From the NCBI GenBank assembly GCA_034440375.1, contig JAWXBZ010000101.1:1-21761 (forward strand): 21,761 nt of DNA, written 5' to 3'. The translations under genes were made by a program, and so were the position numbers. Position 1 is the first letter of the stretch. Each line of letters starts with the position of its first letter. The stretch comes from Candidatus Eiseniibacteriota bacterium (GTDB lineage: Bacteria; Eisenbacteria; RBG-16-71-46; JABDJR01; JAWXBZ01). Below, in pieces: positions 151-11,216 of the stretch. The notes under the pieces are model-generated. The model did not search any database and had not been told where the DNA came from. It saw only the letters and a program-made list of their open reading frames with translations.

Positions 151-1761
151 ATGACCCGATCCTCGATTGACCGCCGGGAATTCCTCCGTCGGGCCGGCAT
201 GACTGCGGGTACCCTGGGTATGGCGGGGGGAGTTGCCGCCCTTCCGGGATGTGGCAATACGACGACCGGCCCGCGGCCGCCACTGGCTCCCACGACGCTT
301 ACCGCGGTGGCGCACTCCGCCACCCGCATCGACCTGTCATGGACCGACAACGCCTCCGATGAAACATCGTACGAGGTTGAGCGCCGCCTGGCCTCCGACA
401 CGGAGTTTGCGCCACTCGCCACCCTGACCTCCGATCAGGTCGACTTCACGGATGAATCCGTCGGTGAGCAGGTGATGTACATCTACCGGGTTCGCGCCGT
501 GGCCGAGACACTGGAGTCGGAGTACTCCAATGAAGCCGAGGCAACGACGCCGGCGGCCGGCGCCCCGCTCGCGCCGCTCGGACTGACTGTCGAGTCGGTC
601 ATGCCGAATGGGGCCGTCCTGACCTGGACCGACGCGGCCATCAACGAGAACGGCTACCGCGTGGAGCGGATCGACGACGCCGGCGTCGCCACGATTCTGA
701 CTCTCCCGCGGGGAGCCGCGAGCGCCTTGATTGACGGCCTCGCTGCGGACGACATCGTCCGGGTTCACGTGATCGCCTTCAATGAGATCGGCGACTCCCC
801 GCCATCGGCCGAGGTCCGCTTCCTGACAGGGGCCGTGGCCGAGTTGATCGTCTTGACACCCGTGGAGCCGGGACGACTGCGCGTCAACTGGACCGATCGA
901 ACCTCTGGCCGACTCGGATTCCAGCTCGATCGGGATGCCGGCTCCGGCTTCACGCCGGTCACCACCCTGCCGGCCGCCACCCGGTCATTTGACGACACGA
1001 CGTTTCCGCTCGGTGTCACGGTTACCTATCGCCTGTCGGCGGTCGGTACCGCTTCGATTGCACCACCAATGGCGTCGCTGGTCATTCCCGGCGCGCCCCC
1101 GGCGGCGCCGACGAACGCGGCCGCGAGTCTTGTCTCGACGAGTGGCAGCCGAATCCAAATCGGCTGGCTACACCCGGGCGGTGACGATGTGATCGGTTTC
1201 GCGATCGAGAGGCGTATCGGCACCGGTGCGTTCAGTCAACTTGTCATCCTCAACGACCCCCAAATGACCTCCCACGAGGACGCTCCAAACGCCGACTTCG
1301 TTCCGGTGACTTACCGTGTGATTGCCCAACGAGTCATCAACTGGAACCTGGCCGGCGCATCACCGCCCTCCAACGAAGTCGCCATCACCCCGCGGGCCGT
1401 CTTCTTCTTCACCGGCAACCTGGCGGTTCTCAACACGGTGAACAAGGGGGTGGCCGTCACGATCAACCGGCCGTCGGTCAGCATCGGCGCCGCGTGCAAC
1501 GCCACCACGTCGAGCGTCTACCTGGTGCGCGAAAACGAAACCAGGATTGCGGCCGTCGTGGCTCACTGCACCCATGCCTGCCTGCGGCCCCCGAACTTCA
1601 ACTGGGTCGAGTCAGCAACGCGCTTCCGCTGCGCGCACGGTTCGGAATTCAATCTCGCGGGGCAGGTGCTCCGTGGTCCGGCACCGAGCAATGTGGCAAC
1701 CCTTCAGACCGTTCTTTTCAGCGACCGGGTGGAGTTGATCCCGCCGACGCTGATGCTCTGA
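151..1761 (+). CDS. Tat-exported lipoprotein with about four fibronectin type III repeats and a C-terminal Rieske-like [2Fe-2S] domain
   Basis: N-terminal DRREFL twin-arginine motif, hydrophobic stretch, lipobox LPGC (Cys codon 250-252); repeated FN3 signatures (LSWTDNASDETSYEVER, LTWTDAAINENGYRVER, VNWTDR, YRVRA...SNE); C-terminal CTHAC...CAHGSEF...G.VLRGPAP; GGAG RBS upstream. Confidence 0.85.
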   Translation: MTRSSIDRREFLRRAGMTAGTLGMAGGVAALPGCGNTTTGPRPPLAPTTLTAVAHSATRIDLSWTDNASDETSYEVERRLASDTEFAPLATLTSDQVDFTDESVGEQVMYIYRVRAVAETLESEYSNEAEATTPAAGAPLAPLGLTVESVMPNGAVLTWTDAAINENGYRVERIDDAGVATILTLPRGAASALIDGLAADDIVRVHVIAFNEIGDSPPSAEVRFLTGAVAELIVLTPVEPGRLRVNWTDRTSGRLGFQLDRDAGSGFTPVTTLPAATRSFDDTTFPLGVTVTYRLSAVGTASIAPPMASLVIPGAPPAAPTNAAASLVSTSGSRIQIGWLHPGGDDVIGFAIERRIGTGAFSQLVILNDPQMTSHEDAPNADFVPVTYRVIAQRVINWNLAGASPPSNEVAITPRAVFFFTGNLAVLNTVNKGVAVTINRPSVSIGAACNATTSSVYLVRENETRIAAVVAHCTHACLRPPNFNWVESATRFRCAHGSEFNLAGQVLRGPAPSNVATLQTVLFSDRVELIPPTLML

Positions 1762-1797
1762 ACGGGCTCGTTATCGTGCCAGGACCCGCGCCGCACA

Positions 1798-1818
1798 ACG
1801 GGCGCGGGGAGCGCCCGT
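1798..1818 (+). terminator. GC-rich hairpin downstream of the FN3-Rieske gene (possible terminator or 3' protective stem)
   Basis: ACGGGCGC (1798-1805) pairs with GCGCCCGT (1811-1818) around a 5-nt loop; no U-tract follows on the + strand. Confidence 0.4.
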
Positions 1819-1858
1819 AAAATTGAAGGCCCCGCCCACCTTTCGGTGGACGGGGCCT
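1819..1858 (-). terminator. Rho-independent terminator on the minus strand
   Basis: Minus strand AGGCCCCG-T-CCACC-GAAA-GGTGG-G-CGGGGCCT forms a 14-bp stem with one G.U pair and a GAAA tetraloop, followed by TCAATTTT. Confidence 0.75.
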
Positions 1859-2010
1859 CTCCATCACTTCATCGCTTTTCCGTGATGGAAGCCGCTCGGG
1901 GACGAATGAAAACCTTCTTCGTCCCCTCGCGGACCGCGACCGAGGCAGTGCCTCTTCCCCTGTCGCCGGGAACACCGTCCGGGTTACCAGCCCAACCGCC
2001 GCGTTCCTTG
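1819..2010 (-). ncRNA. Candidate structured small RNA of about 190 nt, family not recognised
   Basis: Consecutive stems at 2007-1969, 1939-1927, 1926-1898 and 1889-1860, then the terminator at 1858-1827; G.U pairs and the GNRA loop favour the minus strand; TATATT -10-like hexamer at 2022-2017; no convincing ORF. Confidence 0.5.
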
Positions 2011-2076
2011 AACCTGAATATAGTGGCCGGAACCCGGCAGAGCCACATTGATCTGGTAAAAACAGAGTAAAAGTTG

Positions 2077-3678
2077 TCACGGACCGCGCTGGGGGCTTGC
2101 TCCCGAATCAATAATCAAATCTCTCTCGCTCGAATCAATCTGTGGTGCCAATCGGGACGCCCCACTGTAAAAACTTTTGCTACCGGCTCCGTCTGGAATC
2201 GTGACCATGGCATCGACCCCCGGGTGGTTCCGGGCCAGCCATTCGATGGCCCGGCTCCCAAGCACGAAGAGCGTCGTGGACAGCGCATCGGCAAGCATGG
2301 CCCCGGGGGCCAGCACGGTTGTGCCGAGGACGCCGGTCACCGGCTCGCCCCGGCGGGGGTCCATGATGTGGCCGTAGGTGATGCCGTCGAGCACGACGAA
2401 TTTCTCATAGCCGCCCGAGGAGGCCACCGCCTCATTCGTGAGGCGCAGGACTGACCGAATGGAATCCGGCTGAGCCGGATCTCGTATGGCCACCGGCCAG
2501 CCACAGGTTCCAGGCTCCGCGGAACCGCGCGCGATGATGTTGCCACCGAGATCGATGAGCGCGTCCTCGATTCCGATGGACTCGACTGCCGCCATCGCAC
2601 GATCCAGCGCGTACCCCTTGGCGATGCCCCCGAAGTCGAGCGCCATGCCGGCCGCGCCATACCGGACGCCGCGCCGTTCCATATCGACAACGAGGCGTTG
2701 CCAACCAACAAGCGACCGAACCGAATCCACCTGGGTCGGTGTCGGGCGATGCCCGGCGCGCCGATAAAATCCCCAGAGGTCCATCAGTGGCTTGACCGTG
2801 ATATCGAACGCACCATCCGACTCCCGCGCCATCGTGAGCGAGGCCGCGAAGACATCCCAGGTTGGTCCACTCAATCTCACCATCGAGTCGACCGCCGTTT
2901 GGTTCAGACGCACCAGCTCGCTCGATGGTCGGTACAGGCTCATCAGGGAATCGACCAGGGCCAGTTCCCGGTAGGCCGTGTCGAAACCGCGTCGGGCGAG
3001 ATGCGAATCCGCAATGCGCAGCCGGACCTCGCAGGTGGTTCCCATGATCAGCCAGAGTCGACGGTGTTCCGTGGCAGGGCCCGCCTGGGCGGTATTCGCC
3101 AGCGCCATACCCGCCAGGACCAGAGCCAGGGTGCCGGTCGTCGCGCGCGCGGATTTTCGCGTCGGTGGGTGCCGCGTGAACCACATGTCCCGGATCGGGA
3201 GCATCACCTGGAGCAGGAAGGCAAACGTGAGCGCCAGGATCGAGACGATTGACAGGGGCGCCAGGCCGGGGGATACATAGCGGATCAACCAGGGCATGGC
3301 CGCGTCCAGCAGCATGGCCGCGAACGAAAAAAGATACAGGGCGATTTTTCTCCGCTCCGAAAGCGCGGTCAGGGCGACGATGTGGGAAAGGATGAACAGG
3401 AGAACTCCCTGGCCGAAGAGATGTGGATGCACGGCGTCGAGAAGTTCGCGGAAGGTTTTCTCAAATGTCATGACGCCGGCATCGGGGAGCATCTCTCCCT
3501 CGTTGCCGTTGTACCAGGCCCGAACACCGGCCGGTGTCATCCCCGTCTTGTCCCAGTAGTTGATCACGCCGACGATCAGGGCCACCACGATCACCATGTT
3601 GAACACCGTGATCAGCACCTTCGTGTGCCGGGGCGCCCCGGAGAGGTTGAACTTTCGTTCGGCGTGGTACTGGGTCAT
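2077..3678 (-). CDS. apbE: Fusion of an N-terminal 4-TM His-containing membrane domain and an ApbE-family FAD:protein FMN transferase
   Basis: C-terminal ~330 aa carry ApbE motifs IMGT, FDITV, DFGGIAKGY, DLGGNI, ASSGGYEK, HIMDPRRG and ADALSTTLFVLG; the first ~165 aa have four hydrophobic helices with HPH and SH motifs; ATGA overlap with the upstream gene. Confidence 0.9.
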   Translation of the reverse strand: MTQYHAERKFNLSGAPRHTKVLITVFNMVIVVALIVGVINYWDKTGMTPAGVRAWYNGNEGEMLPDAGVMTFEKTFRELLDAVHPHLFGQGVLLFILSHIVALTALSERRKIALYLFSFAAMLLDAAMPWLIRYVSPGLAPLSIVSILALTFAFLLQVMLPIRDMWFTRHPPTRKSARATTGTLALVLAGMALANTAQAGPATEHRRLWLIMGTTCEVRLRIADSHLARRGFDTAYRELALVDSLMSLYRPSSELVRLNQTAVDSMVRLSGPTWDVFAASLTMARESDGAFDITVKPLMDLWGFYRRAGHRPTPTQVDSVRSLVGWQRLVVDMERRGVRYGAAGMALDFGGIAKGYALDRAMAAVESIGIEDALIDLGGNIIARGSAEPGTCGWPVAIRDPAQPDSIRSVLRLTNEAVASSGGYEKFVVLDGITYGHIMDPRRGEPVTGVLGTTVLAPGAMLADALSTTLFVLGSRAIEWLARNHPGVDAMVTIPDGAGSKSFYSGASRLAPQIDSSERDLIIDSGASPQRGP

Positions 3679-4247
3679 GGCGCGATCCCATAAAATGTCC
3701 GGAGGATGCCCAGAACTTTCCGGACACCGAAATTGAGTGATCGGACCGAGAGCGTGGCGCCGGCAATGTTGATGATGTCCCGGTTCTGCCGGATCGGGTC
3801 ATCCCAATCCTTGCCGCGATACTGGTTGAGAAAGCGGGTCCGCCGGATGTCCGCACCATGCGACTCGCGATAGACAAGGACCGTGACCCGCGCCACCTCG
3901 AGCTCCGGTGTTGTTCCGACAAGAAAGGTGATCGGACGATACTTGCCGATTTCCTCGGAGACCACGCCGTAGCCGATGAGAGTCGTGTCGCACCAGGCCA
4001 GATGCACGGTGACGGTGTCGTCGGCCACCGGACCACCGAGGGATTTTTCCAGCGCGCCACGCTGCACCGTGGTCATCACGCGGTTTTCGGTGTCGAAACG
4101 GTTCGCCGTTGGAAACGTCTCCGACAGGGCCTCATGCGTCCCCTGGTAAACCGTGACCGGCATGTCCGGAATCGGTTCGGACGCCCGAACCGTTCCCGCC
4201 AACAGAAGCATGAGGCCGGCGAGCCTTGCCGCGTGATGGAACCTCAT
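3675..4247 (-). CDS. Exported FMN-binding domain protein, probable ApbE flavinylation substrate
   Basis: Signal peptide ending VRA; YRESHG..I....FL.QY.GK segment; INIAGATLS, a variant of the [S/T]GA[S/T] flavinylation motif; adjacent to apbE. Confidence 0.85.
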   Translation of the reverse strand: MRFHHAARLAGLMLLLAGTVRASEPIPDMPVTVYQGTHEALSETFPTANRFDTENRVMTTVQRGALEKSLGGPVADDTVTVHLAWCDTTLIGYGVVSEEIGKYRPITFLVGTTPELEVARVTVLVYRESHGADIRRTRFLNQYRGKDWDDPIRQNRDIINIAGATLSVRSLNFGVRKVLGILRTFYGIAP

Positions 4248-5431
4248 CAGAAGTAGGTGGCCACGGAAAAGTGGGCGGAATCGTTGGGGAGGCTGTCCGT
4301 GTCGATGCCGCGACCGGCGCGCCAGCCCCGGGTGACATCCACCTTGAAGGCCGTGTCCTCGGTCGGCCGAAAATTGAGGCCAATCGCCAGGCGCCGATTG
4401 CGATCGCCGGTCTGGTCGGTGTCAAAATCAACCTGGTCGAATCGCGCGACGCCGGTCAGGACCGAGTTCGGCATCGAGCGAACCACGCCGGTCAGGAAAT
4501 GGATGTTCGTCTGGATGTAGAAGCCGTTCTGACCAACGTTGTCCGAACCGTTCAGGGTGACGCCGTCGGGAAGCCCGGTGGAAGCCACTGCGTATTCGCC
4601 GAGGATCTCCAGCGGGCCGCGGTTGAAGCGCGCGTCGAGCGCGGTGATGGTGAGTTTTTCCGAGGATGTTGTTCGATCCGTATAGCGGCCCGTATGGGTC
4701 GAGATGCCGAGATCGAGTCCGAGCATTGGGCTCAGGCCGAGTCGCCCCACGAACGAGCGCGAATTGTTATTGTCGGTCTTCGCGCTGCCGCGACCGCTCC
4801 GGATCCGAACCTCGCCGGTCTGTGCCCCACCGGAAGTGGCGAGAATCCCCTCATCAAACCCGTTGACCAGGTAAGCCTCCCAGCTGAGTATCGACGATTC
4901 ACCCGGCTCGATCGAACCGAAAAAGCCCATCCCCGCCTCGGACAGTGTCGTAGGGATGATCTGCTGATCGACCAGCGGCCGCTCGGTCAGATCGTTGACC
5001 GGTGAATCGTGGGTCAGGTTGAACCGACCGAGCGGCGACAGGAGAACGCCGCCGCGGAACTGGATCCACTCGGCCATCCGAAAATCGATCTGGGCGAATT
5101 CAACCTTGATCTCCCCATCGGTCTCCTCATCGCCGGCAACGGTGCCGCCGTATTCGAACTCGATCTCGCTGGCCACCGAGACGCGGTCGGAAATCTGGCC
5201 GTACAGGAATGGCACGAAGCGATGCGCCGTGAACGTGCTGCTTGTCTCGTTGGCATTCAGTTCGATGTCGATGTAGCCACCAACCCAGAAGTTATCGCCG
5301 CTGCGAAAGAGGAATGGCTTGTCGTAGATGCCACCTGAATTCCCGGGCCGAGGCGCCTCGGTTGTTTCCTGTGCCGCGAGGAGTGTCGGTGTGAAACCCA
5401 GAATCAAGGCAAGTGTCGCTGCGCGAACCAT
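4247..5431 (-). CDS. Outer-membrane beta-barrel/porin-like protein (OprO/OprP-like fold)
   Basis: Signal peptide; alternating amphipathic beta-strands (SEIEFEY, VEFAQIDF, LAIGLNFRP, FKVDV); C-terminal Phe (VATYF); RBS GGAGAGG; TGATG overlap with the downstream gene. Confidence 0.8.
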   Translation of the reverse strand: MVRAATLALILGFTPTLLAAQETTEAPRPGNSGGIYDKPFLFRSGDNFWVGGYIDIELNANETSSTFTAHRFVPFLYGQISDRVSVASEIEFEYGGTVAGDEETDGEIKVEFAQIDFRMAEWIQFRGGVLLSPLGRFNLTHDSPVNDLTERPLVDQQIIPTTLSEAGMGFFGSIEPGESSILSWEAYLVNGFDEGILATSGGAQTGEVRIRSGRGSAKTDNNNSRSFVGRLGLSPMLGLDLGISTHTGRYTDRTTSSEKLTITALDARFNRGPLEILGEYAVASTGLPDGVTLNGSDNVGQNGFYIQTNIHFLTGVVRSMPNSVLTGVARFDQVDFDTDQTGDRNRRLAIGLNFRPTEDTAFKVDVTRGWRAGRGIDTDSLPNDSAHFSVATYF

Positions 5432-5469
5432 GAGAATCCTCTCCCAGAATGTAGATAGGCCTGCCGGAT

Positions 5470-5485
5470 GTTAGCTATATCTAAC
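5470..5485. promoter_or_regulatory. DtxR/SirR/MntR-family-like metal-repressor operator 1
   Basis: Palindrome GTTAG-CTATAT-CTAAC (TTAG-N6-CTAA core) just downstream of the predicted transcription start of the porin operon. Confidence 0.65.
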
Positions 5486-5497
5486 TTTCGGATCGGC

Positions 5498-5526
5498 AGA
5501 CTAACCTCTGACCTCGCAGAGGTCAA
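5498..5526 (-). promoter_or_regulatory. Sigma70-type promoter of the porin-FMN-apbE operon
   Basis: Minus strand TTGACC (5526-5521), 17-nt spacer, TAGTCT (5503-5498). Confidence 0.7.
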
Positions 5527-5527
5527 T

Positions 5528-5543
5528 GTTAAATATGCCTAAC
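5528..5543. promoter_or_regulatory. DtxR/SirR/MntR-family-like operator 2
   Basis: GTTAA-ATATGC-CTAAC, the same 16-bp dyad as 5470-5485 with one arm mismatch, abutting the -35 hexamer. Confidence 0.55.
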
Positions 5544-9686: not shown

Positions 9687-10326
9687 CCGGCACCGGTACG
9701 GCATCCACGACATGATCCAGAAACCAGCGGTGGATCGTCGGCTCGGAGGTCATTTCCGGGTGGAAGGTCATGACCAGGACGCGCCCCTGCCGGGCGGCGA
9801 TCGCCTCGCCATCGTAGCGGAGCGGGACGGAAACATCGGGACCGACTCGTGAAATGCGGGGCGCCCGGATGAAGACGAGGCGCAGCACTTCGCCTGGCGT
9901 CAAGCCCGGCGACTCGGGGGACTTCCCGGTATCCGCCTCCGCCCCCCACGCCGCCGATGGCACCTCTGTCTCGAATGAATCAAGCTGGCGTCCCCAGCCG
10001 TTTCGGACGACGTCAATGTCGATGAGGCCGAGCGACTCCTGCACGGGTCCGATCACCTGGCGGGCCAGCAGAATGAGACCCGCGCAGGTACCCCAGAGCG
10101 CGCCGCCCCGCCCGTGAAAATCGCGGAGCGCTTCCCACAGTCCGTTTTCCTTGAGGATGCGGATGTGAGCGCCACTCTCGCCGCCGGGCAGAATCAGTCC
10201 GTCCAGTCCGTCCAGTTCAGCCGGTGTCCGGACCTCCCGGCCGTCAATGCCGAGGCGCTGGAGGCTGACCAGGTGAGCCTGGTAATCCCCCTGGACCGCC
10301 AGGACGCCAATGCACGACGACGCCAT
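9649..10326 (-). CDS. pdxT: PLP synthase glutaminase subunit
   Basis: GVLAVQG, LPGGES, GTCAGLILLA, RNGWGRQLDSFE, FIRAP and FHPE motifs; follows pdxS. Confidence 0.95.
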   Translation of the reverse strand: MASSCIGVLAVQGDYQAHLVSLQRLGIDGREVRTPAELDGLDGLILPGGESGAHIRILKENGLWEALRDFHGRGGALWGTCAGLILLARQVIGPVQESLGLIDIDVVRNGWGRQLDSFETEVPSAAWGAEADTGKSPESPGLTPGEVLRLVFIRAPRISRVGPDVSVPLRYDGEAIAARQGRVLVMTFHPEMTSEPTIHRWFLDHVVDAVPVPVSSGPRRNSATQ

Positions 10327-10334
10327 GACGACGA

Positions 10335-11216
10335 TTACCAGCCCCGGGTCTGGAGCAGCTCACTTTCCGGCAGCTTCGAGATGTCGAGACCGGGCATGGC
10401 ATCGCCCAGCTCTTCGGAAACCTGGGCGATCTTGGCCGCATCCTGGTAGTGAGTCGTGGCCAGAACGATGGCCCGGGCACGCAGCGCCGGATCATTCGAT
10501 TTGAAGATGCCGCTGCCGACGAAGACCGCCTCGGCACCGAGCTGCATCATGAGGGCGGCGTCGGCCGGTGTGGCCACGCCGCCGGCGGCGAAGTTCGGAA
10601 CGGGAAGCTTGCCGTTTTCGGCCACCCACCGCACGAGTTCGTACGGGGCACCCAGTTCCTTGGCCTCGGCCATCAATTCATCGCTTCGCATGCCATGCAG
10701 TTTGCGCATGTGGGCCTGCACCTCACGCATGTGCCGCACGGCTTCCACGATGTTTCCTGAACCGGCTTCACCCTTGGTGCGGATCATGGCCGCGCCCTCG
10801 CCGATGCGGCGCAGCGCCTCGCCCAGGTTGCGGCAGCCGCAGACGAACGGCGTCTTGAAACCGAACTTGTCGATATGGAAGCGATCATCGGCCGGCGTCA
10901 GGACCTCGCTCTCGTCGATGTAGTCGACACCGAGCGATTCCAGCACCTGGGCCTCAACGAAATGGCCGATGCGGACCTTGGCCATGACCGGAATCGACAC
11001 GGTGGCCATGATCTCCTTGATGACTTTGACGTTTGACATGCGTGCCACACCGCCTTCCTTGCGGATGTCGGCAGGGACACGCTCGAGCGCCATGACGCTG
11101 ACGGCTCCGGCCTCTTCGGCGATACGGGCCTGCTCGGCGTTGGTGACATCCATGATGACGCCACCCTTGAGCATCTCGGCCAGGCCAGTCTTGAGTCTGA
11201 GTGTGTATTCCTTCAT
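10335..11216 (-). CDS. pdxS: PLP synthase lyase subunit
   Basis: [44 protein letters not shown] and [15 protein letters not shown]; start corrected to ATG 11216 with a GAGGAGG RBS. Confidence 0.97.

Follow-up and report, generated by a model that had tools for sequence, protein, structure and literature searches.

The question raised by the DNA considered here is which task of the bacterial envelope could require a porin, a carrier of flavin mononucleotide (FMN) and a membrane-bound flavin transferase to be encoded together. The stretch analysed, referred to below as the window, comprises 21,761 nucleotides of contig JAWXBZ010000101.1 from a Candidatus Eiseniibacteriota bacterium (genome G000, assembly GCA_034440375.1; 3.96 Mb, 93.7% complete), and the element in question is an operon of three genes for a porin (P0001), an FMN_bind protein (P0002) and a fusion of a membrane domain with ApbE (P0003). 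The answer we favour, with a probability of roughly 0.6, is that these genes specify an iron-starvation-induced, flavin-based periplasmic ferric reductase module feeding FTR1 and Feo transporters. Computation shows which genes are present, to which folds and families their products belong, that the operator is common to two operons, and how the cassette and its iron-related surroundings are conserved; repression by iron, attachment of the flavin, the route of the electrons, the substrate and the sense of the redox reaction are inferred.

Three overlapping open reading frames (ORFs) span positions 5431-2077 of the minus strand in the ORF list of the window (Table 1). The operon structure announced in a preliminary description of this DNA holds at both junctions as read from the sequence: porin and FMN_bind genes are joined by TGATG with an overlap of 1 nt, while FMN_bind and fusion genes are joined by ATGA with an overlap of 4 nt. 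The fusion of membrane domain and ApbE is no artefact. Its junction is spanned by a contig obtained in another study (run X7, record 23; matching window positions 2528-3783) with nine substitutions and no gaps, the seven listed substitutions within the fusion gene comprising three silent and four conservative changes and no stops; moreover, such fusions recur in P0136, P0143 and P0269, where the ApbE domain is C-terminal in each and the membrane part is 79%, 43% or 30% identical to that of P0003. Six relatives keep membrane protein and ApbE unfused, in separate adjacent genes. One more ORF of 120 aa (1718-2080, minus strand), overlapping the ApbE stop, was rejected as a gene: its product is Arg-rich and not conserved, and it crosses the terminator.

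Table 1. Features of the operon, its surroundings and the regulator gene located elsewhere in the genome (positions refer to the window unless a contig is named).
Feature	Position	Strand	Remarks
Operator dyad A, GTTAAATATGCCTAAC	5528..5543		operon strand GTTAGGCATATTTAAC(A); abuts the putative -35
Putative promoter	5498..5526	-	-35 TTGACC (5526-5521), 17-nt spacer, -10 TAGTCT (5503-5498)
Operator dyad B, GTTAGCTATATCTAAC	5470..5485		GTTAG-N6-CTAAC, perfect 5+5 inverted repeat, downstream of the putative -10
Porin gene (P0001)	5431..4247	-	394 aa
FMN_bind gene (P0002)	4247..3675	-	190 aa
Membrane domain-ApbE gene (P0003)	3678..2077	-	533 aa
Aq_1264_TM (PF27139) domain	3154..3678	-	P0003 residues 1-175, four long helices
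ApbE part of P0003	2077..3153	-	fifth hydrophobic segment ~182-198, ApbE domain 212-491 (DNA 2206-3045)
Conserved 3′ untranslated stretch	1876..2010	-	between ApbE stop and terminator; 79% identity over 57 nt with G001
GC-rich hairpin, likely operon terminator	1820..1858		between convergent genes; followed by UCAAUUUU on the minus strand
FN3-FN3-Rieske lipoprotein gene (P0285)	151..1761	+	convergent; Tat signal, C-terminal Rieske
DtxR-like regulator gene	G000:C30:46481-47011 (L024:1393-1923)	-	176 aa; Fe_dep_repress + Fe_dep_repr_C domains

The pattern GTTARN6YTAAC has two matches in the window against 0.00 expected from 100 shuffles, and the 17-mer GTTAGGCATATTTAACA, allowing up to three substitutions, occurs at two sites of G000 only, namely at the promoter considered here and at G000:C30:47059. 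The second site lies ~50 nt upstream of a dtxR-like gene, which is followed on contig C30 by a gene for an FTR1/EfeU-type permease. In G001, a family-level relative, a 16-mer identical to dyad A sits upstream of the porin gene, and GTTARN6YTAAC has only two matches genome-wide, one at the porin operon and the other at the dtxR-like/FTR1 operon, both orthologous to those of G000 (72.5% identity for the dtxR-like product and 69.7% for FTR1). The two operons make up a predicted, conserved regulon, and this provides the strongest support for metal repression, lending in silico backing to the control by a DtxR-family repressor that had been proposed earlier. The C30 permease displays both RExxE motifs, its best NCBIfam match being EfeU, under the cut-off of that model; the 150-aa ORF downstream of it has no Pfam match, and no P19 or EfeO partner was identified. 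FeoB is present in G000, and a Fur gene was not found in this 93.7% complete genome.

The C30 regulator shares its domains with the DtxR/IdeR/MntR proteins, and the window operator is likewise an AT-rich dyad with TTAG/CTAA half-sites, although the actinobacterial DtxR/IdeR box, built of the same half-sites, is 19 bp long and the spacing of the window dyad is unlike it; the regulator differs also in falling under the equivalog cut-offs. It is devoid of an SH3/FeoA-like domain and carries a Cys-rich tail CPGLSRCDVCSEFHEC (CPGx4CxxCx5C), kept in G001; it may represent a distinct subfamily with an additional metal or Fe-S site. A second DtxR-family regulator of 232 aa with a FeoA-like domain, nearest to Thermus-type MntR, is encoded on G000:C257 (L023:209-1914, minus strand) directly upstream of a ZnuA/TroA-type binding-protein gene and probably governs a separate Mn/Zn regulon. 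In order- and class-level relatives (L016-L020) the GTTAG dyad is absent and the porin start is shortly preceded by another palindrome, TGAGAY-N3-GTCTCA, whose copy is perfect in L017, nearly so in L019 and L020 and degenerate in L016 and L018, which suggests that the cassette was rewired there to another repressor, Fur or a DtxR with FeoA domain. Loosely defined matches of the dyad on contigs C24, C184 and C198 were discarded as operators, since they belong to a REP-like repeat that mimics the operator pattern and is unrelated to it. The core of this repeat is the palindrome ACTCGCACCGGTGCGAGT, behind which a GT[TC]AG-N6-CTAAC dyad and another hairpin, ACTCGGTCCAGGCCGAGT, frequently stand; its 10 copies lie on contigs C11, C41, C84, C96, C167, C184 (twice), C198 (twice) and C217, several of them near contig ends.

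The co-occurrence of the three genes, also anticipated by the preliminary description, is borne out by recurrence of the cassette across the phylum of the window and in other phyla. The closest named homologues belong to Candidatus Eisenbacteria (73-78% identity), and the order porin, FMN_bind, membrane protein, ApbE is kept in six of the eight loci fetched from relatives (fetched genomic loci bear the prefix L); three of these relatives possess a Fur-like gene, feoB and a DtxR gene with FeoA domain directly upstream, and a fourth has a Fur gene nearby. Genes of the Aq_1264_TM family, to which the membrane domain of P0003 is assigned through its homologues, were found by a phylum-wide search in 47 of 206 genomes, a tally that takes in G081, a genome flagged as unpublished. 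Porin and FMN_bind homologues stand beside the Aq_1264_TM gene in 22 of 26 loci of this phylum, including those of a deeply divergent subfamily, where ApbE lies directly upstream of the porin in three of six extended loci.

When other phyla were scanned for the porin, 32 loci came back, the G001 contig being once more among them. They belong to Latescibacterota, Krumholzibacteriia, Gemmatimonadetes, Planctomycetota (Scalindua, Brocadiaceae), Poribacteria and unclassified metagenome-assembled genomes, many of the Latescibacterota loci being close kin and hence not independent. An FMN_bind homologue is present in 22 of the 32, ApbE in nine and Aq_1264_TM in seven. The gene set around the flavoprotein varies among the 22: in six, Aq_1264_TM adjoins the FMN_bind gene, with feoAB divergently upstream in five of them; in 12, a PepSY_TM-type protein takes the slot of Aq_1264_TM, often with ferritin nearby and in four cases with its gene exactly between those of FMN_bind and ApbE; three combine thioredoxin with an FMN_bind-ApbE fusion, one having a Fur gene nearby; and in the remaining locus an FMN_bind-ApbE fusion is preceded by DtxR, Aq_1264_TM and a VIT1-like gene. 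Another six loci without the FMN_bind gene carry a di-haem DHOR and a small Rieske gene upstream of the porin, in one case also Nramp. Counted over all these neighbourhoods, FeoB occurs in 6 of the 32 loci and in three relatives, ferritin in six loci according to tblastn and in L055 according to Pfam, Fur or DtxR genes adjoin in L016-L019, L025, L041, L042, L052, L100 and L101, and in L042 an Nramp gene directly follows the porin homologue. The earlier suggested link with iron acquisition is strengthened by this company of FeoAB, Fur, DtxR, ferritin and Nramp together with the operator common to FTR1. A search for DUF2271 gave sub-threshold matches only. In some Latescibacterota loci (L029-L032 and L040, about 9700-10850) a DHOR di-haem gene and another porin-like gene, only weakly related to the first, lie a few kb downstream of the porin-FMN_bind-PepSY set.

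As to the protein components, assignment of the second gene to FMN-binding proteins, made earlier from the letters, agrees with Pfam: PF04205 scores above the cut-off in P0002 (E 2e-4, 22.4 bits against 22; 24.1 bits in a six-frame search) and is present in 111 of 120 listed homologues. The protein is NqrC/RnfG-like, its N-terminus MRFHHAARLAGLMLLLAGTVRA/SE resembles a Sec signal by eye, and its flavinylation motif AGAT, with T165 as the acceptor, departs from the consensus [S/T]GA[S/T] only at the non-acceptor first position. G163, A164 and T165 are invariant in 41 sequences of the family, and the motif reads [S/T/A]GAT in 29 of 29 aligned cassette homologues. Covalent flavinylation of [S/T]GA[S/T]-type motifs in extracytosolic proteins by ApbE is established chemistry (Meheust et al., 2021, eLife; PMC8238504). 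In G000, P0003 is the only ApbE and P0002 the sole FMN_bind match; because each is the single representative of its family and the acceptor Thr is invariant, modification of P0002 at T165 by P0003 would be the obvious reading, and the two would therefore constitute a dedicated pair. P0002 shares with NqrC and RnfG the domain and the ApbE-dependent Thr motif (a weak RnfG match, E 0.011, was obtained, and some sources label its homologues “RnfG subunit”), but it is predicted to be soluble with a probable signal peptide, it lies outside any NQR/RNF operon and its RnfG score is 15.4 bits against a cut-off of 230, so that it is not a member of these complexes. An NqrB/RnfD-like gene detected at G000:C218:41339-42001 (57 bits, two stretches summed), in a genome with no second FMN_bind match, may encode an NQR/RNF-like membrane subunit also served by the single ApbE.

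The ApbE domain of P0003 (PF02424) matches profile positions 1-265 of 266 with E 4.4e-77 (259.6 bits against 25.6), the NCBIfam ApbE match (E 1.8e-39) being under the equivalog cut-off of 498. Four modelled helices, a basic linker and the fifth hydrophobic segment would place ApbE in the periplasm provided that the N-terminus of P0003 is cytoplasmic; the unfused ApbE of G001 has a signal-like N-terminus of its own. The His-bearing membrane domain that the preliminary description saw fused to ApbE takes shape as a modelled four-helix bundle (residues 1-175; predicted local distance difference test, pLDDT, 93.4) with invariant H84 and H86. Its membership in PF27139 rests on homologues and not on a direct profile scan of P0003: 13 of 13 close homologues carry this family as a precomputed domain, and the nearest protein-atlas clusters are 84-100% PF27139. 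The family has no known function assigned and numbers 376 representative clusters in an exhaustive search, mostly stand-alone proteins of 160-190 aa. Across 56 diverse members G58, H84 and H86 alone are invariant, with F119, W130 and W166 nearly so, and in the topology suggested by the model the THxH motif, the YxGxE loop and the PWL motif would face the periplasmic side if the N-terminus is inside. Pfam and NCBIfam gave no match for the membrane domain; residues 1-213 of P0003 did not match PF03929 and PF16357 (PepSY_TM) or PF01794 (MsrQ-like) at E<=10, and the 25 families listed for the 56 members at E<=1 likewise include neither PepSY_TM nor MsrQ-like ones.

The outer-membrane barrel proposed for the first gene is recovered at the level of structure. 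P0001 has an N-terminal signal peptide, ends with ATYF and has no Pfam or NCBIfam match of its own (0 families at E<=10), whereas its AlphaFold model (pLDDT 81.7) produced 276 Foldseek matches at E<=0.001, led by the 16-strand general porins OmpC/OmpK36, OmpU, OprP and OprO at E about 1e-11 to 1e-10 (8.7e-11 and TM-score 0.59 for OprP 2o4v). Homologues at E<=1e-3 number 991 among 7998 candidates scored; PF07396 (Porin_O_P) is present in 26 of 120 listed ones, and some carry PF13609. The fold is common to P0001 and the OprP/OprO group, although P0001 itself stays below every Pfam threshold. The alignment of 40 sequences with 47-79% identity to P0001 contains 71 columns invariant across phyla, many of them Asp, Glu or His. 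General porins do not usually show such conservation, which hints at a particular substrate or partner. The complex predicted for P0001 (residues 21-394) with P0002 (24-190), with alignments and without controls, scored 0.29 and 0.31 against a mark of 0.32. Conduits of the MtrAB type consist of a large barrel enclosing a multihaem protein, MtrB housing MtrA; P0001 differs from them in being 16-stranded, and the CxxCH motif is absent from all three proteins as read from their sequences.

Taken together, these components may be arranged in the following scheme. With iron sufficient, the DtxR-family repressor (176 aa, C30) would bind the predicted GTTAGG-N-TAAC dyads, thereby shutting both its own dtxR-like/FTR1 operon and the porin operon. 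With iron scarce, the dedicated, conserved 16-strand porin would admit iron species to the periplasm, where ApbE, fused to Aq_1264_TM and facing this compartment, would load the exported NqrC/RnfG-like P0002 with covalent FMN on Thr165. Electrons, whose source is probably quinol, would reach the flavoprotein from Aq_1264_TM at the HxH site that the latter has on its periplasmic side, and the reduced flavoprotein would convert Fe(III) to Fe(II), imported then by the co-regulated FTR1 permease and, in many relatives, by FeoB. Electron input is allotted to Aq_1264_TM because a PepSY-type protein replaces it in the same position, and quinol oxidation without transmembrane electron transfer appears to be the simplest mechanism because the conserved residues are on the periplasmic side.

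Several observations weigh against this scheme. Aq_1264_TM has two invariant His only and is devoid of the four-His di-haem core of PepSY, MsrQ and DUF4405 proteins; the 56 members gave scattered single Pfam matches (one of the 56 to cytochrome b561, E 4e-4), and fold searches with the membrane domain returned generic helical bundles only (best Foldseek E 0.8, VIA Z <=9.0). Since there is neither a four-His core nor a specific structural or consistent Pfam relative, the part assigned to it in electron transfer is guessed from where its gene lies, and the electron-donor membrane domain of the preliminary description, with HxH alone and no recognisable cofactor signature, does not go beyond conjecture. 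The C30 regulator is under all NCBIfam cut-offs, the best match being MntR (E 2.3e-16, 60 bits against 138); because it falls short of both MntR and DtxR cut-offs and MntR comes first, manganese is left as a conceivable sensed metal, and iron is preferred because of the genes controlled and not because of the regulator family. Of the promoter which had been drawn between two dyads, the dyads withstand shuffling, while the promoter itself is only a prediction: its TTGAC and TAGTNT are kept in G001, and a consensus sigma-70 scan of the window found 0 promoters. Genome-wide, the loose dyad pattern has nine matches against nine for the reversed control, and no operator copy was seen at the feoAB promoter of G000. 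Flanks of the divergent subfamily are without iron-related Pfam matches, except for DtxR-like genes in two of six fetched loci. Finally, permeases of the FTR1 type are classically paired with an oxidation step, which makes the reductive direction proposed here a tentative one.

A bolder version of the proposal, which we regard as tentative, considers Aq_1264_TM as a new, haem-poor class of flavinylation-associated electron-input proteins of the inner membrane, which would oxidise quinol at a metal or cofactor site (HxH/Glu) on the periplasmic side and would form, with a dedicated and substrate-specific porin that may dock the flavoprotein, an envelope-spanning reductive route for iron not recognised before. 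Equally tentatively, such a route might be widespread in the phylum of the window, Latescibacterota, Krumholzibacteriia, Gemmatimonadota and anammox Planctomycetota, operating beside TonB-siderophore uptake or replacing it.

Among the alternatives, the one faring best retains iron uptake and makes Aq_1264_TM an anchor and organiser of ApbE and the flavoprotein, a supplier of flavin or a site of metal hand-over via HxH/E, the electron donor being encoded elsewhere. It accords with the presence of just two conserved His, both on the periplasmic side and next to the conserved Glu-containing loop, with the recurrence of ApbE fusions, and with known flavinylation clusters that have no core membrane electron-transfer component and are presumably served from elsewhere (PMC8238504). 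It is nonetheless unlikely, given that Aq_1264_TM fills the slot of PepSY_TM-type haem proteins in 12 sister cassettes, that ApbE of the relatives has its own signal or anchor and needs no partner for membrane attachment, and that a four-helix bundle would hardly act as an FAD transporter.

Decidedly less probable is the assumption that the flavoprotein performs another periplasmic redox task, such as repair or detoxification, conversion of a different porin substrate or respiratory electron export, iron control being secondary. Flavinylated FMN_bind proteins do serve many extracytosolic redox functions (PMC8238504), and porin homologues also pair with thioredoxin-like proteins (three loci) or with Rieske and di-haem DHOR proteins (six loci). 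Against this, the operator is common only to the iron-permease operon, neighbours for iron import, storage and regulation recur across phyla, and the cassette P0001-P0003 contains no terminal oxidoreductase, no multihaem protein and no CxxCH. Moreover, a 16-strand porin appears too small to house a redox protein in the manner of MtrB and MtrA.

The least probable alternative, acquisition and homeostasis of manganese or divalent metals in general under an MntR-like repressor with the porin as a cation channel, might appeal to the MntR match of the C30 regulator, to the porin homologue preceding Nramp in L042 and to a manganese-regulated porin reportedly acting with MntH in Bradyrhizobium, but the co-regulated permease is of the FTR1/EfeU type with both RExxE motifs, FeoAB, ferritin, Fur and PepSY-type reductases are what is encoded nearby in other loci, and the flavoprotein and ApbE are left unexplained because uptake of Mn(II) needs no reduction.

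The favoured reading, ferric reduction by a flavinylated periplasmic protein, is not a new principle, since flavinylation-linked assimilatory iron reduction was proposed by Meheust et al. (2021; PMC8238504), who published P19/FTR1 clusters with FMN-binding genes and defined PepSY-like proteins as a flavinylation-associated, Fur-repressed class of ferric reductases. Thus, with regard to the question whether the operon maps onto a described flavinylation system, the concept is covered by that article, and neither this family of membrane partner nor a dedicated porin was found in the papers searched. The likeness to PepSY-like systems (FoxB/VciB-type) lies in the combination, associated with iron assimilation and iron repressors, of ApbE, an exported flavinylated protein and a small inner-membrane partner, and 12 sister loci have the porin-FMN_bind pair followed by a PepSY_TM-type protein. 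The partner here is, however, PF27139, a four-helix bundle with one HxH and no PF03929 match; the flavoprotein is of the FMN_bind family instead of DUF2271, usual in PepSY-like clusters; and a dedicated porin is part of the operon, whereas the word “porin” is absent from the main text of PMC8238504. Bifidobacterium breve requires bfeUO (FTR1 type), apbE and sifE, the last with an FMN-binding domain, when iron is chelated (PMC5449479), and both bfeUO-sifABCDE/apbE and the P19/FTR1 clusters resemble the present case in tying an FTR1/EfeU permease to an FMN_bind protein and ApbE. They differ in that the permease of G000 belongs to a separate operon linked solely by the shared operator, and in that the system described here is a diderm one with a porin, the known clusters being mostly Gram-positive. 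DUF4405/FezC/MsrQ-like cytochromes are, like Aq_1264_TM, small helical inner-membrane proteins encoded next to apbE, with a proposed role in feeding electrons to flavinylated proteins, and were found by gene-neighbourhood logic; at their centre they carry four conserved His that serve as haem ligands (Huang et al., 2024; PMC11334425), whereas the two His of Aq_1264_TM stand side by side close to its periplasmic face and haem binding by it would be hypothetical. The papers searched, the main text of PMC8238504 among them, gave no description of this cassette, of Aq_1264, of a porin as a core member or of an Aq_1264_TM partner. What sets the window apart is that the membrane domain is fused to ApbE and that a DtxR-type operator is common to the porin and FTR1 operons.

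The supply of iron to diderms without obvious siderophore systems in oxidised environments is only partly understood, and the electron-input proteins of many orphan ApbE/FMN_bind pairs are poorly known. The cassette is compact, comprising four functions under one predicted repressor. Should ferric reduction, or a cofactor in Aq_1264_TM, prove true, thousands of genes in little-studied phyla would obtain an annotation, and Aq_1264_TM would become the sixth membrane partner class of flavinylation systems.

The 3′ end of the operon is probably marked by the hairpin, which folds with -40 kcal/mol (z -4.5), a stability reached by 0 of 200 shuffles, and which was not listed by the pattern scan. Between it and the ApbE stop, the conserved stretch 1876-2010 contains a hairpin stem differing from its counterpart in G001 by paired changes (GGGGACGAA/UUCGUCCCC versus GGGGGUG/CACCCCC; fold z -1.94); Rfam has 0 matches in the window, and the stretch may be an element of the 3′ untranslated region or a small RNA. 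The ApbE-Rieske intergenic region of G001 (L015, about 5000-5100) includes a run of N with a copy of one 40-nt stretch on either side, which may be an assembly gap or a masked stretch.

The convergent gene beyond the terminator, which separates it from the operon, encodes P0285 with a twin-arginine signal, the lipobox LPGC and FN3 repeats. It had been suggested as a redox partner of the operon. Of the seven genomes with the cassette located, a gene of this type adjoins it in G000 and G001 only, and the two units are not co-transcribed; on the other side, small Rieske genes adjoin porin homologues in six of the 32 loci from other phyla, with a pairwise E of 2e-7 to the P0285 domain. Hence a partnership of P0285 with the cassette is possible but weakly supported. 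The second ligand motif of its Rieske domain reads RCAHG (Cys-x-His), and the Poribacteria-type relative has CPCHG at the aligned position.

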